DNA from: Octopus vulgaris
Taxonomy: Eukaryota
Direction: 5' to 3'
Assembly: GCA_951406725.2 (NCBI GenBank)
Contig: CATOCA020000001.1
Location: 5,270,001-5,334,000, forward strand
DNA: 64,000 nt
Below the pieces are notes generated by a model. It was not told where the DNA came from, ran no database searches, and saw only the letters and a list, made by a program, of their open reading frames with translations. A program made the position numbers and the translations under genes. Of the stretch, positions 25,439-63,593 are shown one piece after another (the stretch's first letter is position 1; each line of letters starts with the position of its first letter).

Positions 25439-25491
25439 TCAAAAGTTTGTTTCTGCTGTTCTATCCTCTGTTCCATTACCAGTACTTGAAC
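25439..25491 (-). CDS. Candidate terminal coding exon: SSTGNGTEDRTAETNF* (class I PDZ-binding-like tail)
   Basis: tttttttcattatgtttccag| acceptor, phase 1, TGA at 25441-25439; E-T-x-hydrophobic C-terminus. Confidence 0.55.
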
Positions 25492-26904
25492 CTGGAAACA
25501 TAATGAAAAAAACATAAAATATAAAAGTTTAAGCACATTAATTACCGGATAGTATTAATTTGTATATATATATATATATATGTTTATTTCTTACTATTTA
25601 AACTGTTAGAGCTGTTTTCGCTATGTATCCAGTGCAACCCTTAAACAAGTAAATAATATTTCCCTAAACAATAGATCAACGTATTTCAGTTTGTGACTTA
25701 TTCACGAATATGCAATGAATGACGATGCCTTTCATGTTACTTCAGCCAATTGACATACGCTGATGGAAGAACTGTTCTGCTTTGAGACAAATACACTGTC
25801 AACACAAAGGTCACATCCTGTTTACATGGAGTCACACTTTCTTAAAATCTATCTGTACATCTTGAAAATGGCCAGCGTGTATATTTCACAGAAGACAATG
25901 CTCGAAACGTAGATCTGAATCCATGAGAAACTACTTCGACAGCGTTCTTCAAATTATGCCAATGTGATCTGTTTGCCCGAACACTGTTGTACGTAGAGAT
26001 CCCCGTGTACTCTACCTGGGCACACAATATATATATGCACAGATATATTTATTCATTTATATATTTTTTAAATAATAAATAACATGACCATCCCGAAATA
26101 TGTATGTGTATATGTATATATATTTTTACATTTTCCCGAGCAATATATAATTTGTTACGGGATTTGACTAGTAAAAATGCTATTGTCTGTTTCGCAGCCT
26201 CCATTGTTGCATTTCCTCAATATTGACCACTACTTAGACATACTGACCGGATGCGCATAAACCTCTTTTATGCCGGAAATAGATAGACATTATATTGATT
26301 TGGCAGTGGTAAAATGAAATGAATGGAAACGAAGTGAAAAAAATTATATCATTGTTCGGCAATGGGATTTTATTTATATATCTCTTTTATATCTCTTAGA
26401 GATGAGTTAAAGCGTATGAGCTGTGTGTGTATCTATCGATCCTAATTCAAAAATTAATATGATCACTTCGAACAAACTGAATTTTCACTGAGGAAAATTA
26501 TTTGCAACATTGAATAATTTTCCTGAGTGAATTAAAGAAAGTACTGGAATTGTGTGAATTATTCTTCCCAGTAGAGTCTGCATCTTCTACTTCTATACAA
26601 AATAAGAAGAAAACATTTTTGCCCTCGGTTAGACAAACAGTTCCGTAGGGACAAGAAACGGAAAAGCGCAAAATAAAATGCTGATTTATTGAAATTATCC
26701 AAGCTTCGAGAAAATGTAAATGAATAGTTGTATGTATGAGAGAGAGGGAGGGAGTCTGTGCGCTTGCGTGCACGCGTGGGTGTCCTAAGATATCATCCGT
26801 TGTGGTTGATGATGACGACAACGACGAAGAGGTTGGTAATGGTGATTGATGAAGCTAATTATGACGGTAATGGTGTTAGAAAAATGAAGAAACACGATAC
26901 TTAC

Positions 26905-26987
26905 TTTCATCAAGCAAATTCATGTTGAGCAATGCCTGGAATGTGTTCAAAACTTGGGAGATATTGCGCCGCTGTTGACTTTGAACA
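26905..26987 (-). CDS. Shortened SEA-like exon c': VQSQQRRNISQVLNTFQALLNMNLLDE
   Basis: 3' part is homologous to 41980-42134 with the same gtaagt donor; the 5' part is replaced, leaving a candidate new acceptor ctctttaag| in the correct phase. Confidence 0.5.
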
Positions 26988-62202: not shown

Positions 62203-62233
<31 letters not shown>

Positions 62234-63593
62234 GAGATAAAGAAGAAGAGGAAAAAGAAGGACGAGGAGGAGGAGCATGAGGAATGGCGGAGGAAGAAGA
62301 AGAAGAAGAAGAAGAAGGACGAGGAGGAGGAGCAGGAGGAATGGTGGAGGAAGAAGAAAAAGGAGAAGTGGAAGAAGAAGAAAAAGAAGGACGAGGAGGA
62401 GGTGCAGGAGGAATGGCGGAAGAAGGAGAAGAAGAAGAAGAAGAAGAAGAAGAAGAAGAAGAAGAAAAAAGAATGACGAGGAGGAGGAGCAGGAGGAATG
62501 GTGGAGGAAGAAGAAGAAGAAGAAGAAGAAGACGAAGAAGAAGAAAAGGAAGAAGAAGAAGAAATGAAGTGGAAATGAAGAGGAGAAGAATATGAAGAGA
62601 TAGATCGATAAATCTTGGGCGAGAAACATGGCTGAAAAATCAGGGAATATACGGAATCAGAAATCAACATATTCAAATGCACTCATACGCATTCTTATAT
62701 TCATAGTATCAACGACGGAATGCGGTATGCACACTCACATCACACATATTCCCACTCACCCTTGGGGAAATATGGTGAGAGAGATTATTTATTTCATATC
62801 GCTTCATTGTCACAAGAATATTAGAAAACACACGCTTACAAGAAATATATCAGCAGTTTAATTGTATCAGGCCAAATATTGCAGCTTACAAGTACAGTAA
62901 GTATTTCAGGTTTACAGATAGAATGTATGTGACTATATTATTCGAATATATATTTTCCGCTTCCACTTCAGTTGCTCTATTACATAAATAACGTGAAGTG
63001 AATGACAAAATTCGAAGTTGAATGATAATATCGAAACACGAAGGAGAATATTGAAATAAGAAATGGAGGAGGATGCAAAATATAAAATAAAGGAATAATA
63101 TAGTCACATTTCACACAGAACTACACTTATATATGAACATACACATATACTTCAGCTAAAAATATTTGATGCAAACATGTAAACTCACAAACGTTACCAT
63201 TTCTAATACAAATTCATATTAAAATCATTGAAATTTGGGGAACAAAAATGAGTTATTGTGATGCGAATTGAAACAAAGCAACTACAATAAAGGAACATTA
63301 TATTTTTCCTATTATTTCAATTTCTCTCTCAAATTCTCTCTCTTTCTTTCACATTGTCTCGCTCTCTCATATTCTCTTTGTATCTTCCTAAATCGTGTTC
63401 ATTCTACAAATTTGAATTGATTTTGTTTAGTTCAGTCTGAAATATTATACAATTGTGAGCTTATATATCAGCATCAATTATTACTTTCGGAAAATAGTAT
63501 CAAGAAACTGAACGAACTTACAATCCCTTTAAATTTGAAAGGCCCGTGAATGTACCTTCTGTGATGGTTGCAATGTTGTTCGCGTACAGATAT
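38980..63593 (-). CDS. Multi-exon adhesion GPCR-like gene, ectodomain part (LRR-LRRCT-Ly6/uPAR-like-SEA-like-HRM); 5' end outside window; GAIN/7TM not found; possibly a pseudogene
   Basis: Eleven exons with AG/GT boundaries and matching phases except one 1-nt gap: 63593-63522, 62976-62890, 57518-57448, 53772-53615, 48736-48645, 46668-46485, 45547-45465, 44454-44402, 42134-41980, 40597-40483, 39122-38980. Domain calls come from motif recognition, not database search. Confidence 0.85.
40483..40597 (-). CDS. HRM domain exon 1: (M)[38 protein letters not shown]
   Basis: tttttcag| and |gttcgt; C..WPxTxxG...PC...AxRxC hormone-receptor motif; phase 1 in, phase 2 out. Confidence 0.92.
41980..42134 (-). 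CDS. SEA-like exon c: [51 protein letters not shown]
   Basis: Strong pyrimidine tract ending tttcag|, donor |gtaagt; 155 nt, phase 2 in, phase 1 out. SEA-like assignment is inferred from the strand-helix-strand-strand-helix pattern and position. Confidence 0.8.
42256..42835. mobile_element. Non-coding Penelope-like insertion in (TA)n with ~115-bp inverted repeat and a hammerhead
   Basis: Arms 42256-42370 and 42637-42753; (TA)n on both sides. Confidence 0.75.
42348..42390 (-). ncRNA. Minimal type I hammerhead ribozyme fold
   Basis: Minus strand reads CCAC CTGAAGA T TGTC GGAGCA GACA T GAAA CA TT TG TA GTGG. Confidence 0.75.
44402..44454 (-). CDS. SEA-like exon b: [18 protein letters not shown]
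   Basis: ttttgcag| and |gtaagc; phase 0 in, phase 2 out. Confidence 0.82.
44560..44870. mobile_element. MITE-like element with ~45-bp imperfect terminal inverted repeats
   Basis: aaacgcaggataatgctaat / attagcattatcctgcgttt; not present at the paralogous position ~33350. Confidence 0.7.
45465..45547 (-). CDS. SEA-like exon a: [28 protein letters not shown]
   Basis: catag| acceptor; donor reads gtggag (paralog at 33574 has gtgagt); phase 1 in, phase 0 out. Confidence 0.8.
46485..46668 (-). CDS. Ly6/uPAR-like domain exon 2: [61 protein letters not shown]
   Basis: tacag| and |gtaagt; ends with the CCxxxxCN three-finger signature; phase 0 in, phase 1 out. Confidence 0.9.
48000..48330 (-). mobile_element. 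LINE endonuclease N-terminal fragment (Tx1/L1-like)
   Basis: [16 protein letters not shown]...LSNDL start motif. Confidence 0.5.
48645..48736 (-). CDS. Ly6/uPAR-like domain exon 1: (N)[30 protein letters not shown]
   Basis: tgtag| and |gtaaac; LxCxxC start typical of LU domains; phase 1 in, phase 0 out. Confidence 0.88.
49780..50706 (-). mobile_element. R4/Dong-like RT fragment
   Basis: GIFQGDNL...[28 protein letters not shown] across frameshifts. Confidence 0.8.
53615..53772 (-). CDS. LRRCT exon: [52 protein letters not shown]
   Basis: tacag| and |gtaagt; CxC...C...C LRR C-terminal cap; phase 2 in, phase 1 out. Confidence 0.9.
54515..54785 (+). mobile_element. R4/Dong-like 3' end (RLE endonuclease tail) between (AAT)n and (GAT)n; further piece at 55270-55450
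   Basis: [12 protein letters not shown]...[25 protein letters not shown]. Confidence 0.7.
54780..55220. repeat. (GAT)n microsatellite; (AAT)n at 54380-54508
   Basis: Direct reading. Confidence 0.96.
57448..57518 (-). CDS. LRR exon [24 protein letters not shown], 71 nt (one base short of 72)
   Basis: tctctttttcag| acceptor, |gtaagc donor, clear LRR motif; ends in phase 2 but starts in phase 0. Confidence 0.85.
59030..59240 (-). mobile_element. Penelope-like RT fragment
   Basis: CRYIDGI...[15 protein letters not shown] motif. Confidence 0.6.
59270..59781 (+). mobile_element. CR1-group LINE 3' end with (aaact)n tail
   Basis: [22 protein letters not shown]...GHSEKL...[13 protein letters not shown]...FKVSLD. 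Confidence 0.85.
60185..62595. repeat. ~2.4-kb (GAA/GGA)n polypurine tract with higher-order units; resumes 63680-64000
   Basis: Direct reading. Confidence 0.96.
62890..62976 (-). CDS. Degenerate LRR-like exon (phase 2-2): [29 protein letters not shown]
   Basis: Strong gtaagc donor, taatag acceptor, open frame, phase fits the upstream LRR exon; acceptor position is less certain. Confidence 0.6.
63522..63593 (-). CDS. 72-nt LRR exon (phase 2-2): [24 protein letters not shown]
   Basis: atag| acceptor, |gtaagt donor, exactly one 24-aa typical LRR (LxLxxNxIxxIxxxxFxxLxxL). Confidence 0.92.

Follow-up and report, generated by a model that had tools for sequence, protein, structure and literature searches.

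Gene organization of the locus

The stretch of DNA analysed here, referred to as the window, comprises 64,000 nucleotides of the 2.8 Gb Octopus vulgaris genome (GCA_951406725.2; G000:C31:5270001-5334000, where C31 denotes the contig). This repeat-rich region harbors on its minus strand a gene whose structure is almost certainly that of the ectodomain exons of an adhesion G protein-coupled receptor (aGPCR) followed by the native last exon of such a receptor, with no GAIN domain and no seven-transmembrane (7TM) region. The gene encodes a long modular ectodomain with a predicted signal peptide, in which a signal/LRRNT exon (G000:C31:5362875) is followed by leucine-rich repeats (LRRs) and then by LU-like, SEA-like and HRM domains. 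Two LRR exons, the LRR cap, two LU-like, three SEA-like, two HRM and three copied SEA exons and a last coding exon of 53 nt are found in the window, and nine further LRR exons together with the signal-peptide/LRRNT exon lie outside it, no more than 29 kb beyond (G000:C31:5336423 to 5362875). All 31 proteins matched by a query with the LU exon are named Octopus, several being 100% identical. The features are as follows:

63522..63593, minus strand: single-LRR exon, 72 nt (LRR_8, E 0.005)
57448..57518, minus strand: last LRR exon, one nucleotide short at 71 nt (72 expected), the resulting frameshift offsetting a 2-nt loss in an LRR exon upstream of the window
53615..53772, minus strand: LRR C-terminal cap exon
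48645..48736, minus strand: LU-like (Ly6/uPAR) domain exon 1
46485..46668, minus strand: LU-like domain exon 2, ending in phase 1 (UPAR_LY6_2, E 0.26, below the cut-off)
45465..45547, minus strand: SEA-like domain exon 1, with a weak donor, GTGGAG, found in the window copy alone
44402..44454, minus strand: SEA-like domain exon 2
41980..42134, minus strand: SEA-like domain exon 3, 155 nt, carrying the third strand
40483..40597, minus strand: HRM (hormone-receptor) domain exon 1
38980..39122, minus strand: HRM exon 2, with its native phase-1 donor; 143 nt against 170 nt in intact receptors, 27 nt less, in frame
26027..38000, minus strand: duplicated SEA block, a copy of 46332-41108; junction 1, near 38010, replaces the remainder of the HRM-to-GAIN intron
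33574..33656, minus strand: copied SEA exon 1
33180..33232, minus strand: copied SEA exon 2
26905..26987, minus strand: copied SEA exon 3, cut to 83 nt by a new acceptor followed by the in-frame loss of 21 nt; run contigs connect its 3' end with 25491
25555..26026, plus strand: interspersed repeat at the deletion seam where GAIN-7TM was lost, tentatively a decayed Helitron piece
25439..25491, minus strand: native last coding exon of the parent receptor, ending in ETNF and a stop
24820..25438, minus strand: likely 3' untranslated region (UTR) with a 28-nt minisatellite and poly(A)-type hexamers at 24836 and 24828
7294..15136, minus strand: recent duplicate, 95-96% identical, of the greater part of 23633-32890; it contains another SEA exon 3 at 9895-9813 and another last exon at 8409-8357

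An earlier note on this DNA had proposed four exons downstream of HRM exon 2, and all four are present on the minus strand where it placed them, with AG acceptors, GT donors for the three internal ones and phases 1-0-2-1, leaving the frame open from HRM exon 2 to the ETNF stop along the predicted splice path. It read 33656-33574, 33232-33180 and 26987-26905 as duplicates, and they are copies of the SEA exons: in a self-BLAST, 38000-26027 is a 77-92% copy, in pieces, of 46332-41108. The fourth exon, 25491-25439, is not a SEA duplicate and is 80% homologous to the last exon of intact receptors. The matching phases cited by the note are real, but constitute weak evidence, as every boundary concerned (LU/SEA, SEA/HRM, HRM/next and that of the last exon) falls in phase 1. 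Three features were overlooked in that first reading: the LRR frameshifts, the truncation that left copied SEA exon 3 with 83 of 155 nt and without one beta strand, and the second SEA exon 3 and last exon (9895-9813, 8409-8357), a possible alternative 3' end that is used by the public model P0104.

A class I PDZ-binding motif is an S/T-x-hydrophobic C-terminus facing the cytosol. The C-terminus encoded here, T-N-F, resembles the ETNI and ETNF ends of the intact paralogs and is a leftover from the receptor; in the absence of a membrane span this PDZ-like tail would be extracellular.

Splicing of copied SEA exon 3 to the last exon, a join that the note had proposed, was looked for over 24590-26000 in four sequencing runs from four studies, typed as RNA by guess. 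In all four a contig ends at 25491 and its loose letters (30, 28, 10 and 30 visible) match the end of copied SEA exon 3, from 26905 onward, the 10-letter case being compatible with either SEA exon 3. This is the join 26905>25491.

Absence of the GAIN, GPS and 7TM region

The note had also claimed that no GAIN, GPS or 7TM exon follows the HRM, and had set beforehand, as a check, a tblastn search with paralog sequences. Queried with the GAIN-7TM parts of three paralog proteins, this search found no match in the window (best E 1.2) nor in the surrounding 164 kb (G000:C31:5.22-5.38 Mb), and the same query recovers 10 exons in each intact paralog fetched. Across the genome there are at least 68 matches to HRM exon 2 and at least 68 to GPS; a GPS occurs up to 80 kb downstream of HRM exon 2 in none of the 16 receptor-less loci, as against 52 of 52 other paralogs. 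Pfam detects no GPS/GAIN or 7tm_2 in the receptor-less proteins P0010, P0016, P0022 and P0025, and detects GPS in P0030 and P0027. Six full copies show no membrane span and no GPI-type (glycosylphosphatidylinositol) or hydrophobic tail, the peak 19-residue hydropathy past residue 30 being 0.84-1.07. Lacking both GAIN/GPS and 7TM, the family of the window gene is not an adhesion GPCR, although its product would behave as the soluble ectodomain of one. A 7TM-less splice isoform of an intact aGPCR gene is ruled out, as no GAIN-7TM exons lie within the same gene. A separate last 7TM exon (L048, G000:C31:1512616; 90% to P0030) stands on the opposite strand 7 kb past another receptor-less gene.

A family of receptor-less copies

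We compared 16 loci carrying an HRM exon 2 of the window type, one of which halts at an N gap, three apparent 5' truncations being at N gaps as well. Fifteen of them run from the HRM into copied SEA exons and the last exon. The copies sit on seven contigs (C1, C2, C5, C7, C14, C30 and C31), and the three junctions (near 38010, 26027 and 25555) are crossed in single alignments in 15 of the 15 copies with a 3' part and in neither of two intact paralogs. Since the closest pair is only 96.9% identical (median 92%), the copies are not alleles. Their copied SEA modules form one clade, with support 100/97 in a bootstrap that is not fully settled, and the 15 copies evidently derive from a single origin.

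The design is also found in Octopus sinensis, where predicted public models at seven loci (LOC115226131, -226146, -212327, -226165, -212069, -219516 and -230157) end in the copied SEA followed by ETNF. The O. vulgaris public models P0106 and P0107 follow the splice path that the note had proposed, yet are named adhesion GPCR G6-like. Some public models splice copied SEA exon 2 directly to the last exon and end in GFKYW, hence the tail seems dispensable. Among the protein matches from O. bimaculoides there is no receptor-less model of this type, a weak absence. P0035 of that species (LRR-LU-SEA-HRM-complete SEA) was considered as a member and rejected, since it resembles a tandem receptor described below. 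P0034 (an "ankyrin fusion") and P0086 (with a "death domain") seem to have been modelled by fusing unrelated exons. According to PMC10700109, the vulgaris/sinensis split dates to 2.5 million years and the bimaculoides split to 34 million years ago; given the weak absence in O. bimaculoides, the deletion likely occurred between 34 and 2.5 million years ago.

A long and a short HRM exon 2 (170/143 nt) and a long and a short copied SEA exon 3 (104/83 nt) occur in all four combinations among the copies on C1, C7, C5 and C31:6.32 Mb, as would result if copies recombined or converted one another. Of the five copies that are not on C30 or C31, three lie no more than 0.7 Mb from a contig end (C14:0.04 Mb, C7:0.62 Mb and C2:215.3 of 215.6 Mb), suggesting subtelomeric spread. 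Orphan cassettes of SEA exon 3 plus last exon were found at G000:C31:1.84 Mb (two, facing each other), at 4.80 Mb and in the window at 8357-9895, and the public model P0086 links one such cassette to its death domain.

Origin from intact receptors

Comparison with intact receptors locates the rearrangement. After HRM exon 2 the window intron tracks that of the intact receptors for about 980 nt and then becomes a copy of the LU-to-SEA intron. Homology past copied SEA exon 3 stops at 26027, an interspersed repeat of about 470 nt comes next, and from 25555 onward the DNA is 78-88% identical to the final intron and exon of intact receptors. The positions corresponding to these two points were located in an intact relative, where 34 kb containing all GAIN and 7TM exons separate them. 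The best PDB sequence match of the seam repeat is Helraiser (E 0.27), and Pfam gives no support for the Helitron label.

Duplication plus deletion, the origin put forward in the note, matches this comparison and the three junctions common to 15 loci; a tandem duplication followed by one deletion would be the simplest path. First, a SEA(-HRM) unit would have been duplicated behind the HRM, with the tree leaving the source of the copied SEA between the gene's own module and an HRM-less paralog. Such unit duplication does occur in the family, since an intact receptor on C8 (G000:C8:79.00-79.10 Mb; L142-L151) contains eight tandem SEA-HRM exon sets, of about 8 kb each, before GAIN/GPS. Second, a deletion beginning in the intron behind the second SEA and ending in the last one would have removed GAIN and 7TM, a repeat being left at the seam; the frame would have been kept without selection, because the domain boundaries involved are all phase 1. 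Third, the founder would have been dispersed by segmental duplication onto seven contigs, prior to the O. vulgaris/O. sinensis split.

In the C8 tandem receptor the first HRM exon 2 appears frameshifted, and P0035 looks like its O. bimaculoides counterpart. Receptors with a full GAIN-7TM are present at G000:C30:19.54-19.60 Mb and C31:1.77-1.81 Mb, the former passing from SEA straight to GAIN without an HRM and possessing three LU units, of which one is frameshifted. Domain modules are freely shuffled in the octopus receptor family.

Concerning the parents, A0A0L8HDZ7, listed as group 3 by Ritschard et al. 2019 (PMC6408891), clusters with P0059, which matches the receptor-less P0025 at E 1e-54. 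Judged by homology to this cluster, the parents are the octopus group-3 adhesion GPCRs of that paper, whose ectodomain exons and last exon are the same as those of the receptor-less genes. The genes of that study were gathered by Pfam signatures of GPCR classes (7tm_2 for this class), whereas the receptor-less genes have no GAIN, GPS or 7TM. Three group-3 sequences of C. minor without GPS/7TM matches are noted there, and its main text uses none of the terms secreted, truncated or pseudogene. In the literature outside subscription papers we found no description of this receptor-less subfamily.

Two kinds of repeat lie within the introns. A decayed LINE-like (long interspersed nuclear element) sequence of 4.4 kb on the minus strand (28525-32890), which we take to be RTE-like, contains endonuclease and reverse-transcriptase-like frames; it occupies the intron preceding copied SEA exon 3 and was duplicated along with that exon (copy at 10848-15136). 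Pairs of inverted repeats, of 282 nt (94%) and 123 nt (98%), lie within 36066-37042 and 42248-42758.

Domain structure

AlphaFold2 models of two relatives show a confident LRR and first SEA and a moderate LU and HRM; in both, the copied SEA and the tail form low-confidence helices only. The first SEA is modelled as a ferredoxin-like fold with a predicted local distance difference test (pLDDT) score of 75-95, and has no Pfam SEA match. For a SEA-HRM model the top Foldseek match is Gpr126/ADGRG6 (PDB 6v55, E 1.8e-5). A wider fold search with the first SEA gave Gpr126 (Z 7.8, root-mean-square deviation (rmsd) 9.7, 131 aligned), TMPRSS6 (Z 7.7, rmsd 3.0, 96 aligned) and MUC16 SEA5 (Z 7.1, rmsd 2.9, 89 aligned), SEA structures ranking amid many other ferredoxin-like folds (best Z 9.1). 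The second SEA has its third strand deleted in 15 of 15 copies, which leaves the four-strand fold incomplete, and together with the tail it is likely, going by the models, a disordered leftover.

The LU-like domain has ten cysteines across two exons, reaches only E 0.26 in Pfam and gives a strand-rich model of pLDDT 51-80. The HRM scores E 0.0008-0.02 in Pfam, under the cut-off, likewise in the intact paralogs, with its C and W conserved, a fold match to 6v55 and an Atlas lead of 0.82. Whole-model Foldseek searches returned LRR matches only, VLR structures being among the fold matches. The genes resemble ADGRG6/GPR126 in having a SEA-like domain followed by a HormR, and their public models are named "ADGRG6-like"; ADGRG6/GPR126, however, has GAIN and 7TM, whereas the receptor-less genes start with LRR-LU and end after the HRM and a broken SEA. 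GPR126 carries CUB and pentraxin domains.

Sequence variation among the copies

Selection was examined by counting variants over 15 copies, with C30:18.57 Mb, far diverged in its 5' half, omitted from the main test, exons of minority length left out of the codon count and introns masked for microsatellites. A first contrast between exons and introns (0.152 vs 0.211, p 1.5e-5) was rejected, because microsatellites had inflated the introns. Among 194 variant codons no stop occurs where 8.7 would be expected (p 2e-4), a cysteine is lost once against an expectation of 9.0 (p 1e-3), and splice-dinucleotide changes number 2 vs 8.8 expected. Indels common to several copies are in frame (6, 21, 27 and 51 nt), and frameshifts are private to single copies. 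With stops and cysteine losses depleted, the family does not accumulate disabling changes at the neutral rate, as pseudogenes would; most residues are nevertheless free to drift, near neutral.

Five of the six copies whose signal exon was fetched are open from the ATG to the ETNF stop (553-791 aa), two of these containing one LRR exon with a non-canonical site, skippable in frame. Intact copies include those at C2:215.3 Mb and C31:3.07, 3.75 and 10.78 Mb. Of 52 intact LRR exons 50 differ; four positions hold 10-12 residues, the scaffold positions 1-2, and at the latter the nonsynonymous variation (pN) is 0.054 vs a synonymous one (pS) of 0.146. LRR pairs were chosen by flank identity, which biases the flank distance (0.019), left unused. 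When 13 copies are compared, 1 of the 53 sites of the last exon is variable vs 12 of 78 in its intron, a difference that is not significant given 13 exons tested.

The window copy itself is exceptional in its LRR exons. One LRR exon upstream of the window (G000:C31:5347444-5347375) has 70 nt and 57518-57448 has 71, so that the shifts cancel; the exon matching the latter has 72 nt in 10 other receptor-less copies where fetched. The five LRR exons between the shifts are open in the shifted frame, giving a product of 744 aa in which five repeats are misread. Selection is not indicated by this, because 45 of 52 LRR exons can be read through in the shifted frame in any case. Both losses resemble contracted homopolymer runs, a frequent consensus error of long reads, and the two small frameshifts may be real or such errors. 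LRR exons are symmetric, so skipping both shifted exons would keep the frame.

A proposed secreted recognition protein and its alternatives

Taken together, these data make it probable that the family produces a secreted protein. Somewhat less firmly, we favour the view that the window gene is one of about 15 copies of a gene that lost GAIN and 7TM once, and that it likely encodes a secreted recognition protein whose variable LRR face binds targets, with no signalling. It could act as the soluble arm of the group-3 receptor family, capturing or competing for extracellular targets; a decoy, as suggested in the note, would be a candidate role. The note had left open a secreted product or a collapsed pseudogene: the former fits the family better, but the window's own copy may be damaged. 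None of the refuting outcomes listed in the note was encountered.

It should be noted that several observations weigh against this proposal. The signal peptide was called from hydropathy alone. Frameshifts occur in 4 of the 16 loci (window, C1, C5 and C31:6.32 Mb), a splice site is lost in two (C7 and C14), and in one further locus an LRR exon bordering the end of the retrieved sequence is degenerate; the window copy, open only via two offsetting frameshifts, may be impaired. The runs are only presumed to be RNA, and read support is confined to the join 26905>25491, for which orphan copies of SEA exon 3 plus last exon (e.g. 9895-8357) or a retrocopy could be the source. All four run contigs carry the family-majority letters at 25430 and 25369, differing from the window's 25491 copy, and the join evidence therefore applies to the family; the private UTR letters of the window copy are absent from these contigs, and the sampled individuals may differ. 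Core exons vary like masked introns (0.169 vs 0.176 per site, p 0.62), pN/pS ranges from 0.66 to 1.96 by region, falling below 1 in only one of eight tests (p 0.04), an automated test for frameshifts, inflated by an alignment artefact, did not reach significance (7 vs 11.5, p 0.11), and on the LRR face pN (0.31) is not above pS (0.29) in the pairing used.

These data allow for young transcribed duplicates that have no role, segmental duplication having spread a truncated gene that is now decaying, which we consider unlikely yet the most serious competitor. Exons that vary as introns do, pN/pS near 1, several broken copies and a second SEA modelled as unfolded are all expected from such duplicates, and phase-1 modules join in frame by default. 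On the other side, stops, cysteine losses and splice changes are depleted, shared indels stay in frame, the design persists in two species, and the LRR scaffold is constrained in its pN relative to pS.

Alternatively, the product might remain at the cell surface, associated with intact group-3 receptors or some other membrane protein and tuning their signalling in the manner of the 7TM-less variants of LAT-1 and Cirl. aGPCR variants with such roles are described in PMC13197933, and receptor-less and intact genes adjoin on C30. The proteins, however, have no transmembrane or GPI-type tail and no GAIN for pairing, and we regard this possibility as rather improbable.

Still less credible is long-range or trans-splicing of the ectodomain exons to GAIN-7TM exons that belong to another gene, which would make the receptor whole at the RNA level. 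The HRM exon does retain its native phase-1 donor, and the copy at C30:18.43 Mb has a same-strand GPS 107 kb downstream; but the closest same-strand GPS to the window gene is 2.4 Mb away, 10 of the 16 loci have no same-strand downstream GPS match on their own contig, and the gene has its own last exon, joined to the SEA in run contigs. Misassembly or uncollapsed haplotypes, which the note had named as grounds for refutation, can be largely dismissed: 4 of the 16 loci do break at N gaps in a repeat-rich region, but the same junctions recur in 15 diverged loci on seven contigs, a second species has gene models of this arrangement, and run contigs contain the exon join.

Biological meaning

A secreted recognition protein would have partial parallels. 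As described in PMC13197933, the ENT-only variants of C. elegans LAT-1, the single-transmembrane (1TM) isoform of Drosophila Cirl and shed N-terminal fragments (NTFs) are cases of an aGPCR ectodomain acting without its own 7TM. Those forms arise by splicing or cleavage of an intact gene, whereas in octopus the loss is fixed in the genome, GAIN is gone too and the family has multiplied.

Beyond receptors, a soluble LRR solenoid with variable exposed positions recalls other systems. Lamprey VLRB and mosquito LRIM1/APL1 are secreted LRR recognition proteins; the octopus LRRs differ in being inherited exons, one per repeat.

A broader scenario, which we advance only tentatively and consider doubtful as yet, is that the deletion founded a germline-encoded set of hypervariable, soluble LRR proteins for recognition, as a humoral complement to the membrane receptors. 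This set would have arisen inside the genus Octopus during the past tens of millions of years and would still be expanding by copying, exon gain and recombination.

For the annotation of octopus genomes, the present data mean that many public "ADGRG6-like" models in Octopus are not receptors. The naturally soluble ectodomains may be used for finding ligands of the orphan octopus group-3 receptors. More generally, an ectodomain appears here to have been turned into a gene family of its own via genomic deletion, with parent, intermediate-type and derived forms in one genome, which would make it an example, open to dating, of how a GPCR gave rise to a family of secreted proteins.

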